Of a stretch of DNA of 64,000 nt, positions 1,030 through 20,335 are shown piece after piece. Position 1 is the first letter of the stretch; each line of letters opens with the position of its first letter. The position numbers were made by a program, and so were the translations under genes. The notes under the pieces are model-generated. The model ran no database searches, was not told the DNA's origin, and saw nothing but the letters and a program-made list of their open reading frames with translations. Location of the stretch: NCBI GenBank assembly GCA_963817955.1, contig CAWFQK010000002.1, positions 640,001 to 704,000 on the forward strand. The letters are read 5' to 3'. This stretch comes from an uncultured Gemmatimonadaceae bacterium (GTDB taxonomy: Bacteria; Gemmatimonadota; Gemmatimonadetes; Gemmatimonadales; Gemmatimonadaceae).

Positions 1030-1230
1030 CCAGAACCTCCAAAGCAGGTGAAAGAGGAGCAGCGTGGCAGCCGGTGCGGTGGGCCGAGCACGCGAACAAA
1101 CACGGCGACTGACGCCTAGGATAGCTTACCCCATGGAAGTACGCGGCAGAAGGGTCGCGCGCTGACAACTAGGCCGCCAAGCCGGATGCGCGTGGCGCCC
1201 CGACCGACATCAGAGCCACGCACGACCTGC

Positions 1231-1986
1231 TTAGTTCGCGCGGGTCAGGACCCTCGTCCCCTCTTCCGTAATCGCCACCGTATGCTCGAAGTGCGCCGAG
1301 AGCGAGCCGTCTAGCGTGACGATCGTCCAGCGGTCAGCCAGCGTCTTGGTCGCCGGACCGCCGACGTTCACCATCGGCTCGATGGCGATCGTGAGCCCGG
1401 GTACGAGCTTCTCGCGCCGCTTCGGCTTGCCATAGTTCGGCACCTGCGGATCCTCGTGGAACTCCACGCCGATGCCGTGGCCTACGAGATCGCGCACCAC
1501 GCTGAAGCCCGCGCTCTCGACCACCGTCTGTACGGCCGCGCCGATGTCGCCGATATGATTGCCAATGACGGCCGCCGCGATGCCTGCCTCGAGCGACTGC
1601 AGCGTAACGTCGAGCAGCCGCTGCGCCTGCGCACTGATTGCACCAACCGCCACCGTCGTCGCACTATCGGTGAAGTAGCCCTTGTAACCCACACCGACAT
1701 CGAGCGACACGATATCGCCTTCCTTCAGCACACGCTTCTTTGACGGAATCCCGTGTACGATCTCGCTGTTCACCGACGAGCAGATGCTGCCGGGAAATCC
1801 GTACAGCCCCTTGAACGCCGGCGTGGCACCTTCGTGGCTGCGAATGAAATCTTCGGCAATCGTGTCGAGCTCTCCTGTGGAGATGCCCGGATGCACCGCG
1901 AGGCGCAGATGTTCGACCGTGGCGCCGAGAATCTTGCCTCCCGTCGCCATGAGGTCGATCTCGCGCGCCGACTTGAGCTGGATCAC
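1231..1986 (-). CDS. map: Methionine aminopeptidase type I
   Basis: SVNSEIVHGIP, SLDVG, GHGIG..FHEDP, IAIEPM, SAHFEHT motifs; GTG start overlaps the adk stop. Confidence 0.95.
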   Translation of the reverse strand: MIQLKSAREIDLMATGGKILGATVEHLRLAVHPGISTGELDTIAEDFIRSHEGATPAFKGLYGFPGSICSSVNSEIVHGIPSKKRVLKEGDIVSLDVGVGYKGYFTDSATTVAVGAISAQAQRLLDVTLQSLEAGIAAAVIGNHIGDIGAAVQTVVESAGFSVVRDLVGHGIGVEFHEDPQVPNYGKPKRREKLVPGLTIAIEPMVNVGGPATKTLADRWTIVTLDGSLSAHFEHTVAITEEGTRVLTRAN

Positions 1987-2618
1987 GGAACGAGCGCTCC
2001 CAGCGCGCGTGCGGTCACATCCTGAACGGCGCCAACGGCATTCACTACGACCACCTTGCCGCCGTTCTTCTGGTACCATTGCAGCACGGGCGCCGTCTGT
2101 TCGTCGTACACGCGAAGCCGCGTGCGGATCGCATCGGGCTCGTCGTCCTTGCGGCGAACGAGCGTGCCGCCACACTTCTCGCAGACACTGCCGGCATCGC
2201 GCCCCATATACGGCGTCTGGCAGGCCTCGCACACCGTACGGCCGCTGAGCCGCCGGACGATTTCGTCATTCTCGATATCGAACATCAGCACCGCGTCTAC
2301 TTTGCGGCCGAGCGTCTTGAGCATGTGATCGAGCCCTTCCGCTTGCGGCACCGTGCGCACGACGCCGTCAAGAATGACGCCATTGGCGTACTGTGGCCGG
2401 CTCAACTCTTCACCGACGATGCCGAGAATCACGGAGTCCGGCACGAGCTCGCCGCGCTCCATACACCCCTTGGCCTCGAGCCCCAGCCTGGTACCGGCGC
2501 GCACCGCGGCGCGCAGCACATCACCCGTGGCCAGCGTCGGCACGCCGAGCTCCGCGGCCAGCAACGGCGCCTGCGTGCCTTTTCCGGCACCGGGTTTCCC
2601 GAAGAGGACGATAATCAT
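1983..2618 (-). CDS. adk: Adenylate kinase with 4-Cys zinc LID
   Basis: MIIVLFGKPGAGKGTQA P-loop, GELVPD, ILDG, CEAC..CEKC, RKDD. Confidence 0.95.
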   Translation of the reverse strand: MIIVLFGKPGAGKGTQAPLLAAELGVPTLATGDVLRAAVRAGTRLGLEAKGCMERGELVPDSVILGIVGEELSRPQYANGVILDGVVRTVPQAEGLDHMLKTLGRKVDAVLMFDIENDEIVRRLSGRTVCEACQTPYMGRDAGSVCEKCGGTLVRRKDDEPDAIRTRLRVYDEQTAPVLQWYQKNGGKVVVVNAVGAVQDVTARALGALVP

Positions 2619-2728
2619 AGGGCTAGTTGCTGGACACGAGATGAATGGGAGGTGGATCAACGTGGAAAGAGGCCCGGCGAAAGCCGGGCCTCTCCGTACA
2701 ATCTAAGGTCGTCAGGTCTATCCGCTGT

Positions 2729-4066
2729 CTAGAACCCACCAGGCGCGCCCTGCCGTCCACGGAACCGAACGCGGCCCTTCTTCATGAAGCCGTCGTATTT
2801 GCGGAGGAGGAGGTGCTGGTTCATCTGCTGGATCGTGTCGAGCGCAACGCCGACGACGATGAGCAGCGAGGTACCGCCGAAGTTGAACGGGACGTTCACC
2901 GTCTTGAGCACCCAGATCGGAAGCAGTGCGACCAGCGTCAGGAAGAGCGCGCCCGGAAGCGTGATCTTCGATACGACGTCGTCGATGTACTCCGCGGTTT
3001 TCGCGCCGGGCTTCACGCCCGGAATGAAGCCACCCTGCTTCTTCAGATTCTCCGCCAGATCGACCGGATTGAAGATGATCGACGTATAGAAGTACGTGAA
3101 GAACAGGATGAGGATGGCCGAGAAGATGTAGTACAAGGTCGAACCAGGCGCCATCAGGTCGGCAAAGTCGCGCATGCGGGCGCTGCCCATGAACTGCGCA
3201 ACCGCACCCGGCACGACGATTACCGACTGCGCGAACACGATCGGCATCACGCCGGACGAGTTGATACGCAGCGGAATGAAGCTGCGGCTCGCCTCGCGCA
3301 TCCGGCCCCGCGCCATCGTGCGCTGCGGAATCTGAATGAGCACGCGCCGCGCCGCCATCGTCACCGCGACCACCGAGGCCACGACGGCAATCATGATCAC
3401 GATCAGTACGATCATGGAGAACGCACCCACCACACCCGTACTGATGAAGTTGAATGACTGAAAGATGCCTGGCCAGATCCGCTCGACGATCGAGAAGAAG
3501 ATCATGAGGCTGGCGCCGTTGCCGATGCCGCGCTCCGTGATCTGCTCACCGAGCCACATCACGAAGATTGCGCCAACGGTGAGAAAGAACGCCATTGACA
3601 TGCGGAAGCTGAACCCCGGATTCGCTACCGCGCCCGGGATCGACTCGGCAAAGATCGAGAAGCCCCAGCCCTGCACCGCAGCCAGCGCCACCGTCGCGTA
3701 ACGCGACCACTGATTGATCTTCTTCCGGCCTTCCTCGTCCTTCGACATCTTGTCGATCTGCGGCACCACGGCCTGTGCAATCTGCTGGAAGATGCTTGCC
3801 GAGATGTACGGCATGATCCCCAACGCGAACACCGTGGCCCGTGCGAGCTGGCCACCGGTGAACAGGTTGTACAGACCCAGCAGCCCGCCGCCGTTCTTCT
3901 GCGAATTGATGAAATCGCCGATCGCCTGCGGGTTGATACCCGGCGAGGTGATCGCTGCGCCGATCCGGTAGATCAACAGGCACAGAAGAGTGAAGAGGAT
4001 CTTGTCCTTCAGCTCGGGAGTCTTGAACAGACTCTGAACTGCCGACGCTGCGTTGTTTTGGGCCAT
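2729..4066 (-). CDS. secY: Preprotein translocase SecY
   Basis: FALGIMPYISASI, GIGNGASL, GVMPIVFA, GGFIPGVKPG, GGTSLLIVVGV; start moved to MAQNN just after the rplO stop. Confidence 0.97.
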   Translation of the reverse strand: MAQNNAASAVQSLFKTPELKDKILFTLLCLLIYRIGAAITSPGINPQAIGDFINSQKNGGGLLGLYNLFTGGQLARATVFALGIMPYISASIFQQIAQAVVPQIDKMSKDEEGRKKINQWSRYATVALAAVQGWGFSIFAESIPGAVANPGFSFRMSMAFFLTVGAIFVMWLGEQITERGIGNGASLMIFFSIVERIWPGIFQSFNFISTGVVGAFSMIVLIVIMIAVVASVVAVTMAARRVLIQIPQRTMARGRMREASRSFIPLRINSSGVMPIVFAQSVIVVPGAVAQFMGSARMRDFADLMAPGSTLYYIFSAILILFFTYFYTSIIFNPVDLAENLKKQGGFIPGVKPGAKTAEYIDDVVSKITLPGALFLTLVALLPIWVLKTVNVPFNFGGTSLLIVVGVALDTIQQMNQHLLLRKYDGFMKKGRVRFRGRQGAPGGF

Positions 4067-4067
4067 G

Positions 4068-4535
4068 TTACTCCTCGACACGGCCTCCGGCCGCGACAAT
4101 TTTTTCACGGGCACCGGCGCTGACCTTCAGCCCCTTCACCGTGATGGCCTGCGTGATCTCTCCATTCGAGAGCACCTTGACCTGACCCTTGGTGGCCTTG
4201 ATCAACCCCACCTCGGCGAGCGACTCCCGGGTAATCTCACCAGAGAGCTTCTGCAAATCGTCCAGACGGATGATCTGCGACTCGACTCGGAATGGGTTCG
4301 TGAAGCCGCGCTTCGGTAGACGACGCGTGATGGGCATCTGGCCGCCTTCGAAATGCGGCTTGCCACCACCTGGACCGTGATGCCCTGCGCGCGCTTTGCT
4401 ACCCTTGTGTCCCTTGCCGGACGTCTTACCCGTGCCAGAGCCCGGACCGCGGCCAAGGCGCTTGCGATTCTTGGTCGCACCGGGAGCGGCGCTCAGGTTG
4501 TGCAGCCCGATCTTCGAGCCCGTATCTCCTGCCAT
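4068..4535 (-). CDS. rplO: 50S ribosomal protein L15
   Basis: RLGRGPGSGTGKTSGKGHKG, FEGGQMP. Confidence 0.97.
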   Translation of the reverse strand: MAGDTGSKIGLHNLSAAPGATKNRKRLGRGPGSGTGKTSGKGHKGSKARAGHHGPGGGKPHFEGGQMPITRRLPKRGFTNPFRVESQIIRLDDLQKLSGEITRESLAEVGLIKATKGQVKVLSNGEITQAITVKGLKVSAGAREKIVAAGGRVEE

Positions 4536-4796
4536 CTACTTACCCTCCTCGACCAGCGCCACCTCGACAAGGTGGCGGACCTGCTTGAGTTGACCCTTCA
4601 GTCCAGGCGTGATCGCCTTCACCACGATGTCCTGGTGATGCTTGAGACCTATCGCCTCGAGCGTCGCGCGCATGCGCCACGAATGCCCAATACCGCTCCG
4701 GATCTGCTTGATGCGAACGTTGCCCGTTTCGGGGAGGTTCTGCTTCGGCGTCTTGGCCGGCCCCTTGCTCGGATGCCAAACGAATGTACGCGGCAT
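4536..4796 (-). CDS. rpmD: 50S ribosomal protein L30 with N-terminal extension
   Basis: VRIKQIRSGIG..RATLEAIGL..GQLKQVRHLVEV; ATG at 4796 overlaps the rpsE stop. Confidence 0.9.
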   Translation of the reverse strand: MPRTFVWHPSKGPAKTPKQNLPETGNVRIKQIRSGIGHSWRMRATLEAIGLKHHQDIVVKAITPGLKGQLKQVRHLVEVALVEEGK

Positions 4797-5644
4797 TAGA
4801 CCCTCTCCTTCGACTTGGCACGCGACCGGTACTGCAGGCTCGAGACCTCGATGCCGCGCTCGCGCGCGATCTGTTCGACGGTCGTCAAGTGCTGCAATCC
4901 GTCCATCGCCGCGCGCACCATGTTGTGCGGGTTCGTGGACCCGAGGCTCTTCGTAAGAATGTCTGAAATACCGGCGCACTCCATCACGGCGCGAACGGCG
5001 CCGCCGGCGATCACACCGGCACCAGGCGCAGCGGGCTTCATGAGGACTTTGCCAGCGCCATGCTTGCCGACGATTTCGTGCGGAATGGTGCCGCCCGTGA
5101 GCGGGATATTCACCATGTTGCGACGCGCAGCGTCAACAGCCTTGCGGACTGCCTCCGACACTTCGTTCGCTTTGCCCGACGCGAAGCCGACTTTGCCCTG
5201 GCCATCACCGACTGCCACGAGCGCGTTGAAAGAGAACCGGCGACCGCCCTTCACGACCTTCGCGACGCGATTGATGGCGATCACATTCTCGACGAGATCG
5301 CTGCCCTCGCCGCCACGACCGCGATCGTCACCGCCACGCCCGCCTTCACGTCCACCACGTCCGCCACGGTCACCACCGCCTCGGTTGTCACCGCCGCCTG
5401 GACCACCGCCGCCGGGACCACCGCGACCGCGACCCGCGCCACCACCGCCTGGAGCACCTCGGCCACGACCAGCGCCAGCGCCGCCACGGCCACGGCCACC
5501 GCCACCGCTGCGAGCACCACCGCCGCCGCCACCGGGACCACGACCGCCGCCGAAGCCGCCGCCCTGACCGCCCGTGGCGCCCTGGCCAGTCCGCTCACCG
5601 CCGCCGGTCGAGCCGGCTGGCGTCGAATTCTTATTCTGTTCCAT
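4796..5644 (-). CDS. rpsE: 30S ribosomal protein S5 with long Gly/Arg-rich N-terminal extension
   Basis: [47 protein letters not shown]. Confidence 0.97.
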
Positions 5645-5995
5645 TTAGAACTCCAACCCGCCTTCGCGGGCTCCGTCGGCCACCGCTTTCACGCGGCCGT
5701 GATACTTGTACCCGGCGCGGTCGAACACGACAGTCGTGATTCCCGCTTCCTTTGCCCGGGCGGCGATGCGCTTGCCTACCTCGACCGATTTCTCCGTCTT
5801 CTTGCCGACGATGTCCGTACTGGTCACCGTCATCAGCGTGCGGCCGGCGTCGTCGTCGACGAGCTGCGCGGTGATGTGCTTGAGCGAACGGAACACGACG
5901 AGACGCGGACGCGCCGCCGTACCCGACAATTTTTTGCGCACGCGGAGATGGCGACGAAAGCGATACTGCTCGCGTGTCTTCGGAATTGCTGGCAT
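5645..5995 (-). CDS. rplR: 50S ribosomal protein L18
   Basis: [41 protein letters not shown]. Confidence 0.97.
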
Positions 5996-5997
5996 GG

Positions 5998-6537
5998 TTA
6001 CTTGCCCCCCGCCTTACCGGCCTTACGGCGAATGACTTCGCCAGCGTATTTGATGCCCTTCCCCTTGTATGGTTCGGGGGGACGGAGGTTGCGTAGCTCA
6101 GCTGCGACCTGGCCAACGAGCGCCTTGTCCGACCCGGCAATGATGATCGCCGTTGGCTGCGGCGCGGTCAGTTTGATGCCGGCCGGCGCCTTGTACTCGA
6201 TCGTGTGCGAGAAGCCCAGAGCGAGCTGCAGTCCGTAGGGACGCACTTCTGCCTTGTAGCCGACGCCCGTGATCTCGAGCTGTTTCTTGTAGCCCTTCGT
6301 CACGCCCTCCACCATGTTCGCGATCAGCGAACGGGTGAGGCCATGAAGCGACTTGTGATTCGTCTCCTCCGACGCGCGCAGCACGTTGAGCGTGTCGTTC
6401 TCGCGCTCCATCGTGATGCCGCCGGGGAGCTTGTGCGACAACTCGCCATTGGGGCCCTTCACCTTCACGGTATTACCGTCAACCGTCACCGTCACGCCGT
6501 TCGGCACGGTGATGGGAAGCTTTCCGATACGTGACAT
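5998..6537 (-). CDS. rplF: 50S ribosomal protein L6
   Basis: MSRIGKLPI...[12 protein letters not shown]. Confidence 0.97.
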
Positions 6538-6550
6538 GGTCGTTGATCTC

Positions 6551-6949
6551 CTACCAGACGACGGCGACGAGCTCGCCGCCGGTGCGCGCCTGCCGCGCCT
6601 CACGGTCGGACATCAAGCCCTTGTTGGTGCTCACGATCGCGAGACCAAGCCCGTTGCGCACACGCGGGATGTCGGCCGCGCCAACGTACTTGCGCAAGCC
6701 TGGGGTCGAGACGCGCTGCAGTTGGCGAATGACGGACTGGCCGCCGGCGTACTTGAGACGCACGCGCAGCACATGCTTGCCCTCTTCTGTCTCGAGGGTG
6801 GTGTAGTCCTGAATGTAGTGGTTCTCCTTCAGGACGCGGGCGATCTCGGTCTTCATCTTCGACAGCGGCATATCGACGCGACGGTGCTTCGCTCCGCAAG
6901 CGTTGCGAATCCGCGTCAGCATGTCGGCGATCGGGTCACTCATGCTCAT
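6551..6949 (-). CDS. rpsH: 30S ribosomal protein S8
   Basis: DPIADMLTRIRNA, STPGLRKY, GLGLAIVST. Confidence 0.97.
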   Translation of the reverse strand: MSMSDPIADMLTRIRNACGAKHRRVDMPLSKMKTEIARVLKENHYIQDYTTLETEEGKHVLRVRLKYAGGQSVIRQLQRVSTPGLRKYVGAADIPRVRNGLGLAIVSTNKGLMSDREARQARTGGELVAVVW

Positions 6950-7096
6950 GAGAAATTCCTACTCCTCTCGTATCCTTGCGGACGTGGAGGATTGATGGTG
7001 AAAATGGGACAGCGGGAACAGCGGGTTCGCAGGACACGGGCAGCGAGATACGGAACACCGGGACACACCCCGACCCGCATCTCGTCTCTCCGTCCG

Positions 7097-7282
7097 CTAC
7101 CAGCTGGCTTTCCGCACGCCCGGGATCATTCCTTCCAGCGACAGCTGGCGGAAGCAGATACGGCAGAGGCCGAAACGGCGGAGGAACGCACGCGAACGGC
7201 CGCAACGGCCGCACCGGTGGTGAACCCGCACTTGGAACTTCGGCTTCCGCTTGCTCTTCTCGATCATGGCCTTACGAGCCAT
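7097..7282 (-). CDS. rpsN: 30S ribosomal protein S14 type Z (zinc-binding)
   Basis: 61 aa, RCGRCGR...[16 protein letters not shown]. Confidence 0.97.
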
Positions 7283-7305
7283 CGCAGTACTCTCTACTTA
7301 GGGTT

Positions 7306-7366
7306 GGTCGTGCTTGTTGCTGGTGGCTCGGTGCTGGTCGTTACCAGCAGCCAGTCACCAGTCACC
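7306..7366. repeat. Inverted heptamer-repeat hairpin (rplE/rpsN spacer)
   Basis: TTGCTGG/TGGCTCG units opposite CCAGCAG/CCAGTCA units. Confidence 0.6.
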
Positions 7367-7369
7367 CGT

Positions 7370-8047
7370 CTACATCGCCCTTCCGCCCTTCTTATCGTCG
7401 GAGCGGAACGGCAGGCCGAGCTCCTTGAGGAGCGCATACGCCTGGTCATCCTTGTTCGTGCTCGTGACGAGGGTAATGTCCATCCCGTGGATCGACTCGA
7501 TTTCGTCGTAGTTGATTTCGGGGAAGATCATCTGCTCCTTGATCCCAAGAGAGTAGTTGCCTCTCCCGTCGAACGATTTCGTGCCGAAGCCACGGAAGTC
7601 GCGCACTCGCGGGACCGCAACCGTAATGAACCGGTCGAGGAACTCCCACATGCGAGCGCCACGCAGCGTCACCGCCGCGCCAATCTCCTGGCCCTGACGG
7701 AGTCCGAAGTTGGCGATCGACTTCTTCGCCTTTTTGCGAACCGGCAGCTGGCCCGTGATGCGAGCCAGTTCGTCCACCACCGAATCGAGCGCCTTCGGCT
7801 GTTTGATCGCTTCGCCGACGCCCACGTTGATGACGATCTTTTCGAGCTGCGGCACCTGGTGCGGATTGGTAAATCCGAACTGCTGCGAGAGCTTCGGACG
7901 CACCGTCTCCTGATAAAATGCCTTCAGGCGCGGCGACGGAACTGGCAGCCCAGCGCCCGCGTGCGGACCCCGCTGCTTCGTCTCGCCCTTCTTGCCGCCC
8001 TTGGAAGAGCCGCCCTTCTTTTCCTTTTCCTTTTCCTTCGTCGCCAT
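7370..8047 (-). CDS. rplE: 50S ribosomal protein L5 with Lys-rich N-terminal extension
   Basis: [41 protein letters not shown]. Confidence 0.97.
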
Positions 8048-8064
8048 AGTCTATTCCTCGAGCG

Positions 8065-8469
8065 TCAGCGCGCGCGGGGGATGGCTTCCCCGCTCTTCAC
8101 GCTGATCCGCTCCTTGGTTCCGTCTTCGTCGAGCTGCCGACGCACGCGCGTCGGTGCCCCGCTCTTGGGATCGAGCAGCATCACGTTCGAGGCATGGATC
8201 GGCGCCGGGAAATCCACGATGCCGCTCTGCTCGTCGGGCGTGCGTGCGCGGCGGTGCCGCTTCACGATGTTCACGCCATCGACTGTCACGCGACCGGTCT
8301 TCAGGTACACGCGCAGGACCTTGCCTTCCTTGCCCTTATCATCGCCGCGTACCACTCGAACCGTGTCGCCCTTGGCGACGTGCAGCTTCGCGCGCTCCGC
8401 GTTGTCTGCGTGGCGCTTGCGATTCACCGGCTTCGGCCGGTCCATCTTGCGATACTTGAGAATACGCAT
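8065..8469 (-). CDS. rplX: 50S ribosomal protein L24 with basic N-terminal extension
   Basis: [29 protein letters not shown]. Confidence 0.95.
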
Positions 8470-8470
8470 G

Positions 8471-8839
8471 TCAGATCACCTCGGGCGCCAATGACACGAT
8501 CTTCATGTACTTCTTCTCGCGGAGCTCGCGCGCCACGGGACCGAAGATGCGGGTCGCCCGGGGCTCCCCTTGATCGTTGATGATGACGACGGCGTTCTCA
8601 TCGAACCGGATGTAGCTCCCATCCTTCCGTCGCGTCTCCTTCGCCGTGCGCACGACCACCGCACGCGCGACCTCCGACTTCTTTACCGTGCCGTTTGGCA
8701 GGGCGTTCTTCACAGCCACGATCACGACGTCCCCGAGCCCGGCATACCGCCGGCGGGTACCGCCCAGCACACGAATGACCTGTGCGGTCTTCGCGCCCGA
8801 GTTGTCGGCGACCTTGACCATCGACTCTTGCTGAATCAT
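8471..8839 (-). CDS. rplN: 50S ribosomal protein L14
   Basis: [35 protein letters not shown]. Confidence 0.97.
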
Positions 8840-8851
8840 CGGTCGTCTCCG

Positions 8852-9136
8852 TTAGCGCGCCCGCGTGACGATTTCGACCACACGCCAGCGTTTGTCCTTC
8901 GACAGGGGACGCGTCTCCGCAATCCGCACCGTGTCGCCGGTCTTGGCGGTGTTCTCCTCGTCATGCGCTTTTACCCGCTTGGTGCGGGTCACCATCTTCC
9001 CATACACCGGGTGCGGCACGCGACGTTCGATCGCCACCACCACGGTCTTCTGCATCTTGTCGCTCACCACGACGCCTTCGCGTGTCTTCCGCGTGGCGCG
9101 CGTGTCAGCGCTGTTCGTATTGGTCATCTCAGCCAT
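8852..9136 (-). CDS. rpsQ: 30S ribosomal protein S17
   Basis: [25 protein letters not shown]. Confidence 0.97.
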
Positions 9137-9152
9137 GGGTCAGTCGCTCCTC

Positions 9153-9353
9153 TCATCCGCGCGCAGCGGTGGTCTGTTCGCGCAGCACCGTCTTGAGGCG
9201 CGCCAGGTTCCTGCGAATCACTCGTAGGCGCAGCGGGTCCTCGAGGGGCTCGGTCGCGCTCCGGAACTTCAGCCGGAACTGCTCCTCTTCGAGCTCGCGG
9301 ATCCGCGCCGCGATATCATCGTTCGCCATTTCGCGAATTTCGTCAGCTCGCAT
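9153..9353 (-). CDS. rpmC: 50S ribosomal protein L29
   Basis: [27 protein letters not shown]; position between rplP and rpsQ. Confidence 0.93.
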
Positions 9354-9771
9354 GGGTCGGGGCCTCCTCTCGGGCAACGAACTTAGTCCTCACCGGCATC
9401 TTGGCCGCAGCGAGCGCCATCGCCTTCTCGGCGATTTCACGCGTCACGCCCTCGAGCTCGAACATCACTCGGCCCGGCTTCACCACCGCCACCCACAGTT
9501 CCGGAGAACCTTTGCCTTTTCCCATGCGGGTCTCGGCGGGCTTCTTCGTAATCGGCTTATCGGGGAAGATCCGGATCCATACCTTGCCGCCGCGCTTGAT
9601 GTGACGCGTGAGCGCCACACGGGCAGCTTCGATCTGACGAGCCGTGATCCACCCCGGCTCCAACGTCTGCAGGCCAAAGGTGCCGAACGAGATCTCGCTG
9701 CCACGATGGGCGAGACCCGTCGTACGACCCTTGAACCGCTTACGGAATTTGACGCGCTTTGGACTCAGCAT
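9343..9771 (-). CDS. rplP: 50S ribosomal protein L16
   Basis: [27 protein letters not shown]. Confidence 0.97.
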
Positions 9772-9786
9772 TGTCTCATCGCCTCC

Positions 9787-10446
9787 TTACATGCCGGAGG
9801 AGTAGGTGGTGCCGCGACGATCATCGACTTTCTCGCCCTTGAAGATCCAGACTTTGACGCCGATGGCGCCGAACGTCGTCCTCGCGGTTGACGTCGCGTA
9901 ATCGATGTCGGCGCGCAGCGTGTGCAGTGGCACACGACCCTCGTGATAGCCTTCGACACGCGCGATCTCTGCGCCTCCGAGCCGGCCACCCGCCTTGACC
10001 TTGATCCCCTGGGCGCCCATGCGCATGGCGCTCTGTACGGCACGCTTCATGGCACGCCGGAAGGAGATACGCTGCGCCAACTGGCTGGAAATGTTGTCCG
10101 CCACGAGCTGCGCGCTGAGCTCGGGACGCTTGATCTCTTCGACGTTGATTCCGACTTCCTTGCCGGTGAGATGGGCGAGCTCATCGCGGAGCTTGTCGAC
10201 TTCCGCGCCCTTCTTACCGATCACGACACCCGGACGGCCAGTGTGCAACGTCACGACGACCTTGCCCGGCTTGCGATCGATGATGATGTCCGCGATCGCT
10301 GCGTGGCCGAGCCGGGCCTTGAGATACTTGCGCAGCAACTCGTCTTCACGGAGCAGCGCGGGCAGTTCGCGTCCCGCGTAGTAGCGGGACTTCCAGTCCT
10401 TCGAGATTCCGAGTCGGAAGCCGATCGGATGTGTCTTCTGTCCCAT
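9787..10446 (-). CDS. rpsC: 30S ribosomal protein S3
   Basis: [37 protein letters not shown]. Confidence 0.97.
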
Positions 10447-10808
10447 TAGCGGCCTTCCTTCTCGGCGATTACGATTTCCACGTGGCTCGTCCGCTTCTGA
10501 ATTGGAGTGGCACGGCCCATCGCCGCGGGCATGAAGCGCTTGAGCTTCGGCCCCTCGTTGACGACCGCGTGCTTCACGTAGAGCGCGTCCACGTCGAGCG
10601 AAGTATTGCCCTCGCGCGCCGCGTGCTCGGCGTTCGCCACCGCCGAGCGCAGCGTTTTCTCGATCTGCTTGGCGGCGTGTTTCTTGGAAAATGCCAGATA
10701 GGCAAGCGCATCATTCACGCTCTTGCCGCGGATTTCGTCAATGACGAGCCGCATCTTGTAAGGCGACTGGCGCGCGGAGCGCTGAGTCGCGCGAGCTTCG
10801 GCAGCCAT
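10446..10808 (-). CDS. rplV: 50S ribosomal protein L22
   Basis: [28 protein letters not shown]. Confidence 0.97.
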
Positions 10809-10811
10809 GGG

Positions 10812-11129
10812 CTACTTGCCTCCCCGTGCCGGAGCGGCCGATGGAGCCGACGTCTTCTTGTCGACCGCCTTCTGGCCGGTATGTCCACGGAACAGGCGCG
10901 TCGGCGCGAACTCACCGAGCTTGTGCCCGACCATGTTCTCCGTCACGTAGACCGGGATGAACTTGTTACCGTTGTGCACCGCGAAGGTGTGGCCTACGAA
11001 TTCAGGCAGCACCGTGCTCGCCCGTGACCAGGTCTTGATCACGCGCTTCTCGCTCTTGGCGTTCAGTGCGCCCACTTTCTTGGCGAGCGCTTCCTGAACG
11101 AACGGGCCTTTCTTTACGCTTCTACCCAT
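10812..11129 (-). CDS. rpsS: 30S ribosomal protein S19
   Basis: [29 protein letters not shown]. Confidence 0.97.
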
Positions 11130-11136
11130 ATCGGAA

Positions 11137-11212
11137 TCTCGGTTTCGTTGCTCGTTGCTCGTGGCTCGCTACTCGTGATGACGAGAAACGAGTAACGAGT
11201 AACCAGTAACCG
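11137..11212. repeat. Inverted heptamer-repeat hairpin (rplB/rpsS spacer)
   Basis: TTGCTCG-type units, then CGAGAAA CGAGTAA CGAGTAA CCAGTAA. Confidence 0.75.
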
Positions 11213-11214
11213 TT

Positions 11215-12045
11215 TTATTGCGTGGCCTTACCGCGCTTCCGCCCACGGACGATCAGGCGCTGCGACGACTTCTTCTTGTTGCGCGTCTTGACGCCTTCCT
11301 TCTTGCCCCACGGGCTCACGACGTTGCGTCCGCCATGCGTACGACCACCATGCGGATGGTCGACTGGGTTCATGACCTCGCCGCGCACCTTCGGACGACG
11401 TCCCTTCCAGCGCGTCTTGCCGGCCTTGCCCCACGAGATGAGTTCGTGCTCCTCGTTGCCGACCGTGCCGATCGTCGCATAGCAGCGACCGTGCACGAGA
11501 CGCATTTCCGTCGACGGCATGCGCAACGTCACATAGTCGCCTTCCTTCGCCACGACCTGCGCCGACATGCCTGCCGAGCGGCAGAGTTGTCCACCCTTGC
11601 CGATCTTGAGCTCGATGTTGTGCACCGCGGTGCCGAGCGGCATTTCTGCCAGTGGCAACGCATTGCCGGTGCGGATGTCCGAGCCTGGGCCCGCCATCAC
11701 GCTGTCGCCCACCGCCAGGCCCTTCGTATGAAGGATGTAGCGCTTCTCGCCGTCGGCGTACGTCACCAGCGCGATACGCGCCGAACGATTTGGATCGTAC
11801 TCAACGGTCGTGACCGTGCCGGCCACACCGTGCTTGTTGCGCTTGAAATCGATGATGCGGTACTGACGCTTGTGACCGCCGCCACGACGCCGCATCGAAA
11901 TGTGCCCGTGATTGTCACGGCCACCGCTCTTCTTGATCGGCTCGAGCAGCGACTTTTCGGGCGTGCTCGTCGTGATGTCGGAAAAATCCGACACCGTCCG
12001 AAAGCGCGTGCCCTTGGTCACCGGCTTGAATTGACGAATTCCCAT
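11215..12045 (-). CDS. rplB: 50S ribosomal protein L2
   Basis: [22 protein letters not shown]. Confidence 0.97.
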
Positions 12046-12062
12046 GGTCTATGCGCTCCGGC

Positions 12063-12350
12063 TCAGCCTTCGAAGATCTCAATCGTGTCGCCCTCACGGA
12101 GCGTCACGATGGCCTTTTTCCAATTGGGGCGACGACCGACGTTCTTGCCCATGCGCTTCTCCTTGCCGCGCACGTTCGACGTCCAGACGCCGGTAACTTT
12201 CACGCCGAAGAGCTGCTCGATCGCCGAACGGATCTGCGGTTTGTTCGCGTCGGGGTGCACCTCAAAGGTGTACTCCTTGCGCGCCTGATACGCCGCCGAG
12301 CTCTTCTCGGTGATCAGCGGACGCACGATGGTGCGATGTAGTGTCGGCAT
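12063..12350 (-). CDS. rplW: 50S ribosomal protein L23
   Basis: [33 protein letters not shown]. Confidence 0.97.
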
Positions 12351-12353
12351 GTC

Positions 12354-13193
12354 TTACTTCCCCTTCTTCTTGGCCGCGGGCTTCTTCGCCGCTGGCGATT
12401 TCTTGGCGGCAGCCTTCGTGGCCACGGGCTTCTTGGCCGCTGGAGCAGCCTTCTTTGCGACCTTCTTGGCCGGCGCCTTCTTGGCTGCTGCGGTCTTGAC
12501 CGTCTTCTTCGCCAATGATGCCTCGCTCACGGCCTCACGCGCTTCGGCGATTGGCTCGAGCGTGTGGCCTAACGCCCCCGCCTCGATGAGCACGAAGTCC
12601 GACCACAGAATGTGGTAGGTGGACACGTCCGAGTACGGCATCACGTGCACCGTCGGCAAATTGCGCGCACTCAGGAATACGTTCGGCTTTACGCCGTCGG
12701 TAAGAATGAGCACCTTGCGGTCAGCAACGCCGAGGGTATCGACCAGCGCCTTCATGCGCGACGTCTTCGGCGCATCGTATTGGAAAAGGTCGATGACGTA
12801 GATCGCGTCCTCGCGGGCGCGGGCGTTGAGCGCGCTCTTTCGGGCGAGGGCGCGTACCTGGCGTGGCACGTACTGCGCGTAGCTGCGCGGCGTCGGACCG
12901 AACACCGTGCCGCCGCCCACCCAATGCGGCGCGCGCGTGGATCCGGCACGGGCGCGGCCCGTACCCTTCTGCTTCCACGGCTTCTGATTACCGCCCGTCA
13001 CGTACTTGCGGATCTTGGTCGAGGCGTTGCCCTGGCGCTGATTGGCAAGAAATGCCTTCACCGCCTGGTGCATCACCGGCATGTTCACGGTGCCGTCGAA
13101 CAGCGTCTCGGGGAGCGCGACTTTGTCGCGCACCGTCCCCTGCGCCGTATAGGCGGCCGCCTGGAACGAGGTTCCTGTCGTGTTGTCAGCCAT
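12354..13193 (-). CDS. rplD: 50S ribosomal protein L4 with histone H1-like Ala/Lys/Pro C-terminal tail
   Basis: [24 protein letters not shown]-terminal [14 protein letters not shown] repeats. Confidence 0.97.
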
Positions 13194-13196
13194 GGA

Positions 13197-13880
13197 TTAA
13201 GCCTGCTTCCGAACGACCACGATGCCACCGGGCTTACCGGCGATCGAGCCGCGGATATAGATCAGGTTGCGCTCCGTGTCGATCTTTTCGATGCGGAGAT
13301 GCGTCTGCGTGTGCCGCTCGTCGCCATAGTGGCCGGGCATCTTCTTGCCCTTGATGACGCGCGACGGATCCGTGCCGGGTCCGATCGAACCGGGACGGCG
13401 ATGCTTGGTGTTGCCGTGCGTGTTCGGACCGCCGCCAATGCCATAGCGCTTCACGACGCCTTGGAAACCGCGGCCCTTGGTGGTGCCAGTCACCTTGACC
13501 GTATCGCCGACGGCGAAGATGTCGACCTTGATCAGATCGCCGACATTGTACGACGGGATCTCGATCGTCGCGTTGCCCGGCTCATCGAGACGCACGCTGC
13601 GCAGAATGCGCGGCGGCGCGGAGAGTCCCGCCTTGTGGGCGTGACCGACGGTGGCGAGCGACGCGCGATGTCCCTTGGGCTTGCCTTCTCCCTTGACCGA
13701 GGCGCGCCGCAGACGCGACTGGCCGTAACCGAGTTGCACGGACGCATGTCCGGCCTTCGCCTTGTCCGTCACGGCGAGCACCGGGTTGGGCTCGGCTTCG
13801 ATCACCGTCACCGGGATCTGCTGGCCCTGTTCGTTGAAGATCTGGGTCATGCCCAGCTTCTTGCCAATGATGCCAATCAT
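13197..13880 (-). CDS. rplC: 50S ribosomal protein L3
   Basis: GKKLGMTQIF, KGRGFQGVVKRY, RRPGSIG, KGKKMPGHYG. Confidence 0.97.
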   Translation of the reverse strand: MIGIIGKKLGMTQIFNEQGQQIPVTVIEAEPNPVLAVTDKAKAGHASVQLGYGQSRLRRASVKGEGKPKGHRASLATVGHAHKAGLSAPPRILRSVRLDEPGNATIEIPSYNVGDLIKVDIFAVGDTVKVTGTTKGRGFQGVVKRYGIGGGPNTHGNTKHRRPGSIGPGTDPSRVIKGKKMPGHYGDERHTQTHLRIEKIDTERNLIYIRGSIAGKPGGIVVVRKQA

Positions 13881-14012
13881 GAATTTCTAAACCTCAGCTG
13901 AGTCACTGTCGGAATTGACAGTTGGACTGTGGCGGAAACGGTCGTGGTGGCCCGTGGCTCGTCATACCAAGCAACGAGATGCGAGCACCGTCCCCCGCCT
14001 GCGTCGTGGTGC

Positions 14013-14321
<309 letters not shown>

Positions 14322-14327
14322 TGAGAG

Positions 14328-14416
14328 TTACTGGTTGCTAGTTGCTGGTTGCTGGTTGTTTGCCGCTGGTTGCTCGCTGCTGTTTCCAGCGACGAGCAAC
14401 CAGCAACGAGCAACCA
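14328..14416. repeat. Inverted heptamer-repeat hairpin (tuf/rpsJ spacer)
   Basis: TTACTGG TTGCTAG TTGCTGG TTGCTGG ... CCAGCGA CGAGCAA CCAGCAA CGAGCAA. Confidence 0.8.
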
Positions 14417-14422
14417 AACGCA

Positions 14423-15625
14423 TTACGCGAGGATCTTCGTGACGACACCAGCGCCGACGGTGCGGCCGCCTTCACGGATGGCAAAGCGAACCTGCTCCTC
14501 CATCGCGATCGGGGCGATCAGCTCGATCGTCATCTGGATGTTATCGCCCGGCATCACCATCTCGGTGCCAGCCGGCAGCTCGACCGAACCGGTGACGTCG
14601 GTCGTGCGGAAGTAGAACTGCGGACGATAGCCCTTGAAGAACGGCGTGTGGCGGCCGCCCTCGTCCTTGTTCAGGACGTAGACCTCGGCTTCGAACTTCG
14701 TGTGTGGCTTGATCGAACCGGGCTTGGCGAGCACCATACCGCGCTCGATGTCCTTCTTGTCGACGCCGCGGAGCAGGAGACCGACGTTGTCGCCGGCCTG
14801 GCCCTGATCGAGCAGCTTGCGGAACATCTCGACGCCCGTGACGATCGACTTCTTGTCCGAGCCGAAGCCGACGAGCGAGACTTCCTCACCGACCTTGATG
14901 ATGCCGCGCTCGATACGACCAGTCGCAACCGTGCCGCGGCCCGTAATTGAGAATACGTCTTCGACCGGGAGCAGGAACGGCTTGTCGATCTCGCGGACGG
15001 GCTCCGGGATGTAGCTGTCGAGCGCGTCGTAGAGTTCCTCCAGGCGCGCTACCCAGTTCGGATCGCCGGCAATCGCACCCGTGGCCGAGCCGCGGATGAC
15101 CGGCAGCTCGTCGCCCGGATAATTGTACTTGCTGAGCAGCTCGCGCACCTCGAGCTCGACGAGGTCGAGAAGCTCCGCGTCCTCTACCATGTCGCACTTG
15201 TTGAGGAACACGACGACTGACGGCACGTTCACCTGACGGGCGAGCAGGATGTGCTCACGCGTCTGCGGCATCGGGCCATCGACCGCGCTCACCACGAGGA
15301 TCGCGCCGTCCATTTGCGCGGCGCCCGTAATCATATTCTTGACATAATCGGCGTGGCCCGGGCAGTCGACGTGCGCGTAGTGGCGCGCCTTCGTCTCGTA
15401 CTCCACGTGGCTCGTTGCGATCGTCAGAATCTTCGTCGAGTCACGACGCCCCTGCGACTCCGATGCCTTGGCGACTTCGTCGTAGGCGATGTACTTGGTG
15501 CCGTACCCACGCTCCGACGACACCTTCGTCAGCGCCGCGGTCAGTGTCGTCTTGCCGTGATCGACGTGGCCAATCGTACCGACGTTTACGTGCGGCTTGT
15601 TCCGCTCGAACTTTGCCTTTGCCAT
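14423..15625 (-). CDS. tuf: Elongation factor Tu
   Basis: [33 protein letters not shown]. Confidence 0.98.
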
Positions 15626-15652
15626 TGTTCGCGTCCTGGATTGTTTGAGTCT

Positions 15653-15708
15653 CTACTGGTTGCTGGTTGCGTGTTCCTGGTTGAACCAGCGATCAGCAAC
15701 GAGCGACC
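15653..15708. repeat. Inverted heptamer-repeat hairpin (fusA/tuf spacer)
   Basis: CTACTGG TTGCTGG ... CCAGCGA TCAGCAA CGAGCGA. Confidence 0.7.
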
Positions 15709-15711
15709 GTC

Positions 15712-17832
<2,121 letters not shown>

Positions 17833-17967
17833 AGAAAGTCGCTGCTAGTTGCTAGTTGCAGATTCCTGAAAAAAACGGAACCAGATTCTTTGTCGTTTTG
17901 AAAATCGAACCAAGTCCTTTCCTCTAACCGCGCGCAGCAAGCGATTAGTGTTCGTCCTTCCACCAGC

Positions 17968-18015
17968 AAAAACGCGGGTGGACCGGGCGCTCCAGAGGAG
18001 CCGGTGTCCATCCGC
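17968..18015 (-). terminator. Intrinsic terminator/attenuator-like hairpin inside the fusA leader
   Basis: Minus strand GCGGATGGACACCGGCTCC-TCT-GGAGCGCCCGGTCCACCCGC followed by GTTTTT. Confidence 0.6.
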
Positions 18016-18049
18016 CATCGCCGGGTGTACTCGTCACTGCTGCGCGAGT

Positions 18050-18252
18050 GGGGACCCAAGGCGCGCCGAGCAATACCGCACTCGACGTCAAATTGTCCTG
18101 CGTCGCTTGTCGGGAGTCGTTGCACTCAGCGCGAGTGCGTCGATCGGCAGCAGGCCCCTGCGTGATGCAGGCCCATAAGTGTCGGCGCGCAGCTCGCCGA
18201 AGTCATCTACCAAAGGCACTGGACCAACCGAAGCCCAACACCCTTAGCCCCC
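18050..18252 (-). ncRNA. Candidate ~200-nt structured RNA (fusA 5' leader or independent sRNA)
   Basis: 5' arm (18233-18252) pairs with 3' arm (18050-18071); internal hairpins at 18182-18200, 18157-18171 and 18122-18138; starts just after a sigma70-type promoter; no credible ORF. Confidence 0.5.
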
Positions 18253-18254
18253 TG

Positions 18255-18282
18255 AATTTATCGGAGCTTCGTCCCGTGTCAA
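18255..18282 (-). promoter_or_regulatory. sigma70-type promoter upstream of fusA
   Basis: TTGACA-16 nt-TAAATT on the minus strand. Confidence 0.65.
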
Positions 18283-18370
18283 CGGGCAAGCCACAGTCCG
18301 TTTCGGGCGTACCGTGGCTCTACACGATGCCGTCAGATCGTGCGGTACTCACACTGCTAGCACACTCCGC

Positions 18371-19216
18371 CTATCCGCGCCGCGTCCAGATCGCGATCGC
18401 ACCGCAGCGAAGGTCGGGCGCCGCAAACTCAACCGGCATTTCCGAGAGACCGCGGAATACCTCGATTGCCTCCACGGTGTCGAGCGACATGGAGCCAAGC
18501 CCGTCCGTGATCGGGTCCGTACTCCCATGGGTGTCCATTCGATGGCCGTCGACAAACCAGCCGATGCGACACGCCGTAGCCGCCGAACCCGCAAAGCCAA
18601 AATTCATATCAGGACTGCTGCGCGTCATCTGCATCGTCGAAGTAAACCCAGGATTCAGCACCGACAATCCCGGCACGCGCTGAAGGAACTGCCCCAACGA
18701 GCTCACGTTCGCTTTGTCGAGGTCGCTACGATCGTAGTGGAGCCCGAGGCCTAATGCCTTTCGGCTGGCGAAGCCAGGCACCACTGCCGCGCGCTGCTGC
18801 ATCTCTGCTGCCTTGACCGCGCTCGGATCCGGACGAATGTGCTCGATGACGCCAATCTGGTGTTGCGGGTCGCCCGATATCGCGATCGGAACGCGCACGG
18901 TGAGGCGCTCGCCATTGTCGAAATGAATCGGCGCTGACAGTATCGACGTGTAACCCGAACGGACTGCCGCGATCTGGTAAACACCAGTCGTCGTCTTCAG
19001 GTCGAAGTTCCCGAGCGAATCGGTGGTCGCGTGAACGACCGGCGCGTTGGTCGCCGGATCGACGAGCATCACGGTGCCGCGGACGGGTGAACCGGTCGCG
19101 TCGTCGTACAGCACGCCCCGCACTACAACTTGTGCAGTCACCAGGGCAGGAGCCAGGAAGGAGGCGAGAACGACTCCGGCGATCGCCGCCGCGTGTTTGA
19201 TAGAATGGAAGCCCAT
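18371..19216 (-). CDS. Secreted protein with carboxypeptidase-regulatory-like domain plus TonB-receptor plug-like domain (no beta-barrel)
   Basis: Signal peptide ending AQ, VRGVLYDDATGSPV..TTDSLGNF..GY; C-terminal FLQRVPGL..WFVDG..VEAIEVFRG..CGAIAIWTR. Confidence 0.75.
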   Translation of the reverse strand: MGFHSIKHAAAIAGVVLASFLAPALVTAQVVVRGVLYDDATGSPVRGTVMLVDPATNAPVVHATTDSLGNFDLKTTTGVYQIAAVRSGYTSILSAPIHFDNGERLTVRVPIAISGDPQHQIGVIEHIRPDPSAVKAAEMQQRAAVVPGFASRKALGLGLHYDRSDLDKANVSSLGQFLQRVPGLSVLNPGFTSTMQMTRSSPDMNFGFAGSAATACRIGWFVDGHRMDTHGSTDPITDGLGSMSLDTVEAIEVFRGLSEMPVEFAAPDLRCGAIAIWTRRG

Positions 19217-19421
19217 GACGCACCTCGACTCAACGATGGTCACCGGGCCTCATACCGAATTGCGACCTGCAATCCTTCGTGCTCTGCTGGTCCGACCGCG
19301 CCGAGCTCTCGCTCCCGCACCCCGGCCCCACCCCACACGCCGACCCGGTCCCCGCAACATGAACGAGATGCGTGCCACGAACGCGGCCGCATTCACTTTC
19401 TCGATGCAGAATGTGACCGAC

Positions 19422-19724
19422 TCAGCCGTGGCGATGCCCGTTGCGCTTCTTTTCAGGCTGGTTGGGGTTCAGCTCGCGCGGGCTCTGCGCCTGACCTTTT
19501 CGCGCGTGCTGGTCGCGAGTGAGAAGTGTCTTCGGCGGCGCGGCGCCATTCGGCTGACGCGCTCCCCTCGCCGGACGCTGCTCGCCCATCGGACGACCAG
19601 TGTGAGACGTAAACTGCTCTTCGATATTCCGCTCGGCGCGTCGGCCGCGGCCGCCATGCGGATTGCCGCGCTCCGCAAGCTGGTCCTTGAACTGATCGCC
19701 GCGATTCTTCCGGATGTCGCTCAT
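19422..19724 (-). CDS. Small hydrophilic, probably disordered hypothetical protein (100 aa)
   Basis: GGAGG SD (19730-19734) just before ATG at 19724; rich in R/G/Q/N/E with no hydrophobic core. Confidence 0.6.
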   Translation of the reverse strand: MSDIRKNRGDQFKDQLAERGNPHGGRGRRAERNIEEQFTSHTGRPMGEQRPARGARQPNGAAPPKTLLTRDQHARKGQAQSPRELNPNQPEKKRNGHRHG

Positions 19725-19810
19725 GGAATCCTCCGTGATGAGCGCTCTCTCAGGCAGGCGTCGTGCCCGCGTCGCCCGCGGCGATCGGCCCATGTGTCTC
19801 ATGGATACGA

Positions 19811-19845
19811 AGAACCCCGCCGGTTCGAGACCGGCGGGGTTCTTT
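19811..19845. terminator. Intrinsic terminator after rpsG (potentially bidirectional)
   Basis: AGAACCCCGCCGG-TTCGAGA-CCGGCGGGGTTCT perfect stem; T-rich tails on both strands. Confidence 0.8.
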
Positions 19846-19864
19846 AGTGCTCGAAAAAACGATG

Positions 19865-20335
19865 CTACCAGCGATAGTGAGCGAATGCCTTGTTTGCGTC
19901 CGCCATGCGGTGCGTGTCTTCCTTTTTCTTTACCGCATTCCCTTCGCCCTTGGACGCGGCGATCACTTCGGCAGCGAGCTTTTCCGGCATCGACTTCTCG
20001 TTGCGATCGCGCGAGTAGTTGATCAGCCAGCGCATGGCCAACGCCGTGCGGCGCTCCGGACGGACTTCCACCGGCACCTGATAGGTGGCACCACCGACGC
20101 GGCGGCTCTTCACTTCAACGACGGGCTTGAGGTTCGCCAGCGCCTGCTTGAAGACGTTGACGCCCGGCTGGTTTGTGCGGCTCTCGACGAGGTCCATAGC
20201 GCCGTAGAAGATGCGCTCAGCGGTCGACTTCTTCCCCTGGAGCATCATGGCGTTGATGAACTTCGAAACAGTCTGGCTGTCATAACGCGCATCCGCGAGG
20301 ATGGGGCGCTTGACGGATCCTTTGCGGCGACTCAC
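19865..20335 (-). CDS. rpsG: 30S ribosomal protein S7
   Basis: [40 protein letters not shown]. Confidence 0.97.

Follow-up and report, generated by a model that had tools for sequence, protein, structure and literature searches.

A covarying leader RNA with a predicted terminator hairpin upstream of fusA in the Gemmatimonadales

The fusA leader and its surroundings

We analysed a window of 64,000 nucleotides (nt) from an uncultured Gemmatimonadaceae bacterium (GenBank assembly GCA_963817955.1, contig CAWFQK010000002.1, positions 640,001 to 704,000 of the forward strand, numbered here from 1), in which fusA, the gene for elongation factor EF-G, is preceded on the minus strand by a structured leader lying in a gap of 538 nt (17833-18370). 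By comparison with related genomes we show that this element represents a well-supported new RNA family, which covaries, occurs in single copy and is confined, in our sampling, to the order Gemmatimonadales. Behind fusA lie tuf and rpsJ, and downstream of rpsJ the chain of open reading frames (ORFs) continues on the same strand with genes that we take, from their size and order only, to be the S10/spc cluster. The features of the locus are as follows.

14013-14321, minus strand: rpsJ (Pfam match)
14423-15625, minus strand: tuf (Pfam match)
15712-17832, minus strand: fusA (EF-G; Pfam match), first gene behind the leader, with its ATG at 17832
17833-17967, minus strand: spacer between the U-tract and fusA, poorly conserved in the alignment except for UUUUUGCUGGUGG directly after the terminator stem
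17966-18073, minus strand: core, the span of the covariance model (~110 nt), comprising the 3' strand of hairpin Hc, hairpin Hd and the terminator
17968-18015, minus strand: predicted intrinsic terminator, hairpin 18015-17974 and U5 at 17972-17968, the U5 lying 135 nt before the fusA ATG
18019-18063, minus strand: Hd, with outer helix CGCC/GGCG, internal loop UUGGGUCCCC/ACACCC (conserved in the family) and an inner covarying hairpin
18064-18087, minus strand: Hc, hairpin CGUCGAG/CUCGGCG, which encloses a variable insert in relatives
18089-18200, minus strand: accessory domain with hairpins P2 (18200-18182, loop AGCUGCG), P3 (18171-18157) and P4 (18145-18115)
18209-18248, minus strand: P1, a local 5' hairpin of varying length
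18255-18282, minus strand: sigma-70-like promoter, -35 TTGACA at 18282-18277, 16-nt spacer, -10 TAAATT at 18260-18255
19865-20335: rpsG, upstream of the leader

An initial annotation of this stretch, made from the sequence alone, had read a TTGACA-16-TAAATT promoter on the minus strand, and a promoter scan places it at 18282-18255. It is the sole promoter-like site in 17600-18600 and the sole one on the minus strand of 1-20000, where the scan returned no further promoter-like or terminator-like site. Transcription would start near 18249-18247, within the conserved AAGGGGCU. The pattern TTGAC(N16-19)TAnnnT followed by GGCU is present in all 29 fusA-linked relatives and is also visible in their alignment; the strict settings of the promoter scan are passed by 67 of 109 loci of the Gemmatimonadaceae. 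Counted from the end of the -10 element to 6 nt beyond the U-tract, the predicted RNA measures 284-394 nt among the 29 relatives, with variable inserts in two regions. Reduced to its minimum, the leader takes up ~150 nt and consists of the promoter, AAGGCU, an A-rich strand with an ACAA motif, Hc, Hd and the terminator. A ribosomal RNA (rRNA) operon on another contig of the same genome has a promoter TTGACG-17-TATAGT (L160:3230-3270, minus strand, contig C4) that is followed by TAAAGGCUGUCGC, with the AAGGCU start-region motif found throughout the family behind the -10 element of the leader promoters of fusA and rpsJ; AAGGCU may be a common initial-transcribed or discriminator signal of translation-machinery promoters.

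Screening against Rfam bears out the view that the leader is not a known RNA: no family matches it at the gathering score, and at E<=10 on 17700-18500 the sole match is a chance one (E=4.7) on the opposite strand. The leader had also been described as lacking the hallmarks of signal recognition particle (SRP) RNA, transfer-messenger RNA (tmRNA) and RNase P RNA, in keeping with which each of these RNAs is detected elsewhere in the genome. The 6S RNA model (RF00013) has no match in the window genome; as this control was positive for just 5 of the 14 known genomes, a divergent 6S RNA may exist in the lineage. Full-text searches for ribosomal leaders or fusA leaders of Gemmatimonadetes/Gemmatimonas returned no relevant publication on this element, and the main text, as distinct from the supplements, of a survey of 20 leader candidates (Eckert and Weinberg 2020; PMC7247131) contains neither fusA nor Gemmatimon*. 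We also considered a leader peptide, a 57-residue ORF at 17845-18018, and rejected it, as its ATG is not conserved and the loop lengths differ by non-multiples of three (by eye).

Distribution and conserved structure

A BLAST search with the leader against 60 relatives (36 of the same family, 12 of a second and 12 of a third family of the order) gave matches in 30/36 genomes of the Gemmatimonadaceae, 0/12 of the second family and 1/12, a weak one, of the third. A pattern derived from the terminator, scanned over one genome per species, found at least 120 stretches; 79 of the 80 record titles listed read Gemmatimonad*, and the remaining one reads "bacterium". With a profile of the full RNA, many family loci match over the last ~115 nt only. 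A covariance model (R1) finds exactly one match in each of 81/151 genomes of the order: by family, 57/62 in f1 at 80-120 bits (56/61 without one unpublished genome, G124), and 16/61 in f2 and 7/27 in f3 at 38-51 bits. We rebuilt the model with 20 sister-family sequences taken from the weak R1 matches, and this second model (R2) finds the core in 97/104 sampled genomes of the order, the window genome not counted (f1 28/31; f2 67/71, or 66/70 without the unpublished genome G112; f3 2/2), as against 0/46 genomes from nine other families of the phylum Gemmatimonadota. There is one strong R2 match per genome, with one weak second match in G059, and neither nhmmer nor the covariance models return a second copy in the window genome. 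The window core itself scores 120.2 bits with R1 (E=3.6e-20) and is found by R2 at E=2.0e-20.

The consensus structure is strongly supported by base-pair changes. Across 97 distinct cores 97.2% of cells pair and 11 of the 26 pairs change on both sides; 0/500 shuffles reach any of these measures, and partners slid by 1-3 columns pair in 29-53% of cells. With the sister families added, 16/26 core pairs change on both sides, among them two pairs each in Hd and the lower stem of the terminator (this alignment was fitted to the model and is hence biased to its structure, but the raw sequences themselves clearly show the changes). Covariation in fusA upstream regions, the check that the initial annotation had proposed, is found in the core helices beyond shuffles. 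In Hc, each of the 8 predicted pairs is broken or gapped in at most 9/29 sequences, and 7 of them are changed on both sides, in up to 12/29 sequences per pair. The outer helix of Hd, CGCC/GGCG, becomes CAUC/GAUG in the sister families, with two pairs double-changed in 14 and 16 sequences, and 5/6 pairs of its inner helix covary.

The long hairpin and U5 that had been noticed at 18015-17968, ~135 nt before the fusA ATG, are located exactly there. The hairpin has a 9-bp lower stem (GCGGAUGGA/UCCACCCGC) with an A18011.C17978 mismatch, then a CA bulge, a CC/GG step, an internal loop and an apical stem; the mismatch and the long loop region explain why a simple scanner missed it. All 5 pairs of the apical stem covary and this stem varies freely, whereas the A.C mismatch and the segments GCGGA, ACC, GGUC and CCGC are invariant in 75/75 aligned sequences from three families. 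In 20/20 sister-family sequences two pairs of the lower stem are switched, one from UA to GC and the other from GC to CG. The position just after the lower stem, a U/C-G pair in the Gemmatimonadaceae, is an unpairable G.G in all 20 sister-family sequences and is therefore better read as part of a two-base NA bulge followed by CC/GG. Hairpin and U-rich tail are retained in 97/97 family cores and 20/20 sister-family cores, as expected from sequence for an intrinsic terminator. Right after the stem (17961-17972, minus strand) lies UUUUUGCUGGUGG, conserved in the genus, with UUUUUGCUG or UUUUUGUUG across the order; this region contains the octamer GCTGGTGG, which we take to be the E. coli Chi sequence, probably by coincidence.

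The 5' part of the leader is less uniform. A closed domain of ~200 nt had been proposed, and the long-range closure GGGGCUAAGGGUGUUGGGC/GCUCGGCGCGCCUUGGGUCCCC is indeed the minimum-energy fold of the window sequence (z-score -1.96; other strand 0.09). It is not conserved: across the 29 aligned relatives 63.3% of the cells of the 20-pair closure pair, 485/500 shuffles equal this, and the covariation score lies below the shuffled mean. The 3' partner (the GCUCGGCGCGCCUUGGGUCCCC segment) belongs instead to the covarying helices Hc and Hd, and the 5' segment is used by P1, a hairpin that forms locally in most of these relatives in single-sequence folds of 5' segments read by eye, with arm variants such as GCUACGG/CCGUAGC, GCUCCGGG/CCCGCGAGC and GCUACGCG/CGCGUGGU (also by eye, not formally counted). 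A pairing by RNAalifold of the 5' GGCU with GGCC at 18174-18171 was not adopted, being invariant and in conflict with P1.

The three hairpins that had been seen inside the supposed closure fared better, and UCGGCG/CGCCGA (18200-18182), CCUGC/GCAGG (18171-18157) and GCACUC/GAGUGC (18138-18122) are kept in relatives with compensatory changes. The closing pair of P2 alternates among UA, CG and GC; two pairs of P3 covary (CG in 27 and UA in 9, and UA in 22 and CG in 15, of 40 sequences), and P4 has covarying pairs in its outer and inner parts. Identity in this accessory domain is 70-90% within the family, the strand CGCAGGACAAUUUG at 18102-18089 shows almost no variation among the aligned sequences, and a pseudoknot between CUGCG in the P2 loop and a CGCAG strand is possible. 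The domain is full in 29/29 near relatives. Among the 80 listed pattern-found loci it is full in 33, partial in 25 and absent in 22, which have the core alone, and the sister-family loci aligned to the model likewise show the core only.

These features bear on a riboswitch, in which the accessory domain, or Hc and Hd, would serve as the aptamer for a metabolite or alarmone and control the terminator. A multi-helix domain with nearly invariant stretches and a possible pseudoknot, immediately followed by a terminator and matching no known family, is what such a switch could look like, but the domain is absent or partial in much of the family and not seen in the aligned sister-family loci, no known riboswitch model matches, and no conserved antiterminator joins an upstream strand to the terminator. 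When the 3' terminator strand was removed from 10 sequences of three families, no common alternative helix appeared, so a classical RNA switch is unlikely for the core. We regard a riboswitch as improbable; if there is one, the accessory domain is its likeliest sensor. Equally improbable, in our judgement, is a variant in which the 110-190-nt accessory domain would act as an aptamer, sensing a ligand such as a nucleotide or alarmone, and would have been grafted onto an older protein-dependent attenuator; were it true, aptamer and attenuator would form a two-input RNA controller of the entire EF-G/EF-Tu/ribosomal-protein cluster.

Genomic position and history of the element

The element is tightly linked to the genes behind it. 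In 29 of 30 fetched loci fusA lies directly behind the BLAST match, and the thirtieth (L029) has rpsJ in its place. Behind the terminator motif, tblastn places fusA at a distance of 25-167 nt in 105 of 109 loci; 2 others have a truncated fusA start (by eye) and 2 have rpsJ. In all 20 fetched loci of two sister families the core stands between full-length rpsG and fusA. Tblastn located fusA in 19 of them, and the ATG follows the end of the model match by 11-26 nt in 18 of these and by 122 nt in the other, L202; in L200 fusA was read by eye. In none of the 20 loci do the 400 nt before the core contain a promoter-like site. The genes fusA, tuf and rpsJ are contiguous and head to tail in 3/3 genomes checked.

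This arrangement argues against a trans-acting small RNA (sRNA), which would be an independent transcript of ~285 nt here, or one derived from the rpsG 3' untranslated region in the sister families, with fusA reached by incidental read-through. The initial annotation had raised a stand-alone, possibly 6S-like RNA of ~280 nt, and several observations would suit it: in the window's family the element has its own strong promoter and terminator, its primary sequence is highly conserved, its size is in the range of 6S RNA, and Rfam finds no 6S RNA in the genome, with the weak control noted above. Against this stand the strict cis linkage (107 fusA and 2 rpsJ among the 109 motif loci, and fusA at 20/20 sister-family loci), the want of space for a fusA promoter in the 11-26 nt between terminator and ATG in the sister families, and the absence there of a promoter for the RNA itself. 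The element also differs from 6S RNA in being multi-hairpin, in having no conserved stem closing 5' on 3' and in its polycistronic spacer position in the sister families. We therefore set the stand-alone RNA aside as very unlikely.

The element stands directly before rpsJ at three loci (L083, L089 and L029/L211), and by its record titles one assembly carries it twice, once ahead of fusA and once ahead of rpsJ. In genome G031 it precedes rpsJ, and fusA lies elsewhere behind an unrelated leader without a model match. These cases indicate that the element tracks ribosomal-protein genes at least as much as it tracks fusA. The fusA leader of G031 (L214:1300-1500) is without a terminator and contains a stretch, GGGCGCCUUUGUCCCUGCG, faintly like the 5' strand of Hd, which may be a decayed remnant of the element.

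Since two sister families have the core in the rpsG-fusA spacer, this is taken as the older state, and since the core there has no promoter of its own, the element predates the split of the operon; rpsG is still inside the locus in 17/110 family loci. The suggestion that the element replaced the S7 coupling lost when the str operon split is accordingly not supported, the core already being present in the intact spacer at 20/20 loci. The history would then run from a spacer core to the gain of a promoter in the Gemmatimonadaceae and of P2-P4 in part of that family, with duplication or transfer to rpsJ.

A related proposal is that S7 itself binds the RNA and controls fusA and the genes downstream, as in the E. 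coli str operon. The ancestral position immediately 3' of rpsG would suit it; passages of PMC3616713 describe repression by S7 within the E. coli str operon, and multiform rpsL and fusA leaders are discussed as possible S7 targets in parts of PMC2965389. Yet S7 would have no autogenous control by way of the element, since rpsG either precedes it or is unlinked, the rpsJ-adjacent copies and G031 point to the S10 cluster, and the RNA shows no similarity to its own 16S rRNA (see below). We consider S7 an improbable regulator.

A possible transcription attenuator

We tentatively read the element, with a little less than even confidence and partly by analogy, as a protein-assisted transcription attenuator of the fusA-tuf-S10-spc cluster whose factor would be encoded downstream. 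The initial annotation had suggested an attenuator or riboswitch-like leader of fusA; a conserved cis leader with a terminator fits the first of these, and the second finds no support in the core. Expression of EF-G, EF-Tu and the ribosomal proteins encoded further on would require RNA polymerase to read through the core: with no promoter in the sister families, contiguous genes and no other minus-strand promoter-like site in the window, the polymerase must pass the hairpin. Because no competing antiterminator helix is conserved, we infer that a trans-acting protein sets the efficiency of termination, which would be partial and regulated. This protein would recognise Hd together with the bulged terminator hairpin, and the likeliest factor would be a ribosomal protein encoded downstream, acting together with NusA in the manner of L4 at the S10 leader of E. 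coli. Covariation and position together make the element a conserved structured RNA in the leader or spacer of a ribosomal-protein operon, as expected of a ribosomal-protein leader, and genomic logic would favour binding by a downstream-encoded ribosomal protein. In the window's family the core has acquired a strong promoter of its own, and in the window it bears the 5' domain P1-P4 as well.

A simpler possibility is a constitutive partial terminator, or a processing or stability element, that works without a regulator and fixes the ratio of rpsL-rpsG to the downstream genes or marks an RNase site. The E. coli rplL-rpoB attenuator with its RNase III site is a comparable case. The location of the core in the spacer of an intact operon at all 20 sister-family loci and the missing antiterminator are both compatible with such an element, and the A.C mismatch and bulge would be expected to weaken a terminator to a partial one. 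A plain terminator should nevertheless drift as the apical stem does, but the lower stem, mismatch and bulge do not change inside a family and change little over the order as a whole, and the upstream Hc and Hd are kept as well; retention behind a new promoter, duplication to rpsJ and the G031 case would also be odd for a mere spacer. We judge this explanation unlikely.

A site for NusB and S10 of the boxA type is a further candidate, in which the strand with the ACAA motif, lying before Hc, would bring in Nus factors, either for antitermination through the hairpin or for autoregulation of S10. The window sequence ACAAUUUGACG (18096-18086) shares AUUUGAC with a boxA-like stretch of one rRNA leader of the same genome, S10 is encoded downstream, and boxA sites upstream of rpsJ are predicted in some gammaproteobacteria according to passages of PMC5725501. 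The motif varies in relatives (UUUG, UCUG, UUGA, CUCA and others) far beyond what is expected of boxA, however, a second rRNA leader differs, and the boxA identity of the rRNA stretches is our own reading of the sequence. We hold this to be the most doubtful of the candidates. An rRNA leader on contig C2 (L159:3180-3240, minus strand) has a hairpin CCCCCAGAGAGGGGGG followed by GCUAUUUGACAAUCG, which looks like a boxB/boxA pair and has AUUUGAC in common with ACAAUUUGACG.

Several points weigh against the protein-assisted attenuator that we favour. Both the RNA end at 17968 and the regulation are predictions from sequence. Invariance of the lower stem could reflect selection for fixed, unregulated termination in an essential operon, and part of the invariance in the 80 listed pattern-found loci is due to the search pattern, the BLAST-found (29) and model-found sets being free of this bias. 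The Hd internal loop UUGGGUCCCC/ACACCC is missing in the sister families, so a protein site common to all the families would have to lie in the terminator hairpin, and in G031 the mismatch is A.G, not A.C. At the sequence level, local alignment to the organism's own 16S rRNA scores 20 against a shuffle mean of 21.8, and alignment to a slice of the rRNA operon, which may not include the whole 23S rRNA, scores 24 against 23.8; with no similarity above shuffles, there is no evident rRNA mimicry. Metatranscriptome contigs cover 17959-18175 in relatives ~90% alike (four runs, four studies); they come from relatives only and lack starts, ends and strand, and as carry-over of DNA is possible we do not use them as evidence.

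The architecture of Hd and the terminator is analogous to that of the E. coli S10 leader, in which, as described in passages of PMC3616713, hairpins HD and HE are the targets of L4 and NusA, with no antiterminator involved. Both RNAs head S10 ribosomal-protein genes (the element directly so at three loci), both have a hairpin followed by a bulged terminator hairpin with a U-run, neither uses an antiterminator helix, and in both the terminator hairpin carries the determinants, as reported in part of that source for E. coli and predicted here. They differ in that there is no sequence similarity and no Rfam match (the presence of an S10 leader model in Rfam 15 was not checked), in that the element lies upstream of fusA-tuf in nearly all genomes and the S10 leader next to rpsJ, and in that the element, unlike the S10 leader, is not seen to overlap the start of its first gene. 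The terminator stem is also nearly invariant in the element, whereas HE is variable in gammaproteobacteria in the account of PMC3616713.

Other leaders of the str operon offer looser parallels. Predicted premature terminators of many forms precede rpsL, and in streptococci fusA, in the sections of PMC2965389 that deal with them (Naville and Gautheret 2010); these rpsL leaders, the streptococcal rpsG-fusA candidate and the Pelagibacter rpsL motif (Meyer et al. 2009) are predicted premature terminators or structured motifs that lie, like the element, within or ahead of the str operon. They resemble it further in being lineage-specific in sequence, with a protein partner that is unknown or presumed to be S7, and differ from it in lineage, sequence and structure. 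These leaders are also drawn with putative antiterminators, whereas the element has no conserved one, and the element has no second copy before rpsL, there being one match per genome. The Bacillus L20 leader of infC-rpmI-rplT, as presented in parts of PMC1865079, is a ~200-nt leader by which a ribosomal protein attenuates an operon that includes a translation factor, and it thus resembles the role proposed here, attenuation of an operon with ribosomal-protein and translation-factor genes; it differs in mimicking an rRNA site, for which we found no counterpart in the element. We file the element among the leader attenuators of ribosomal and translation operons, outside the E. coli S10-leader family, 6S RNA and the riboswitch classes.

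The only evident way into a cluster of more than 17 kilobases, which encodes EF-G, EF-Tu and, as we read the ORF chain, most ribosomal proteins, leads through the element. Almost all sampled genomes of the order, which is abundant in soil, contain it. As a well-supported new family it lengthens the short list of RNA leaders of translation-machinery genes outside the Proteobacteria and Firmicutes, and its nearly invariant, mismatched and bulged stem provides a concrete handle for finding the factor that would read it.

Further genes have been inserted between rpsG and the leader promoter in the window's lineage. Two ORFs occupy this interval in the window, both on the minus strand: one of 126 residues (19422-19802) without a Pfam match, and one of 290 residues (18371-19243) with weak matches to CarboxypepD_reg and Plug (TonB) domains. 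The latter is much too short for a TonB-dependent receptor and is also conserved upstream of the leader in many relatives.

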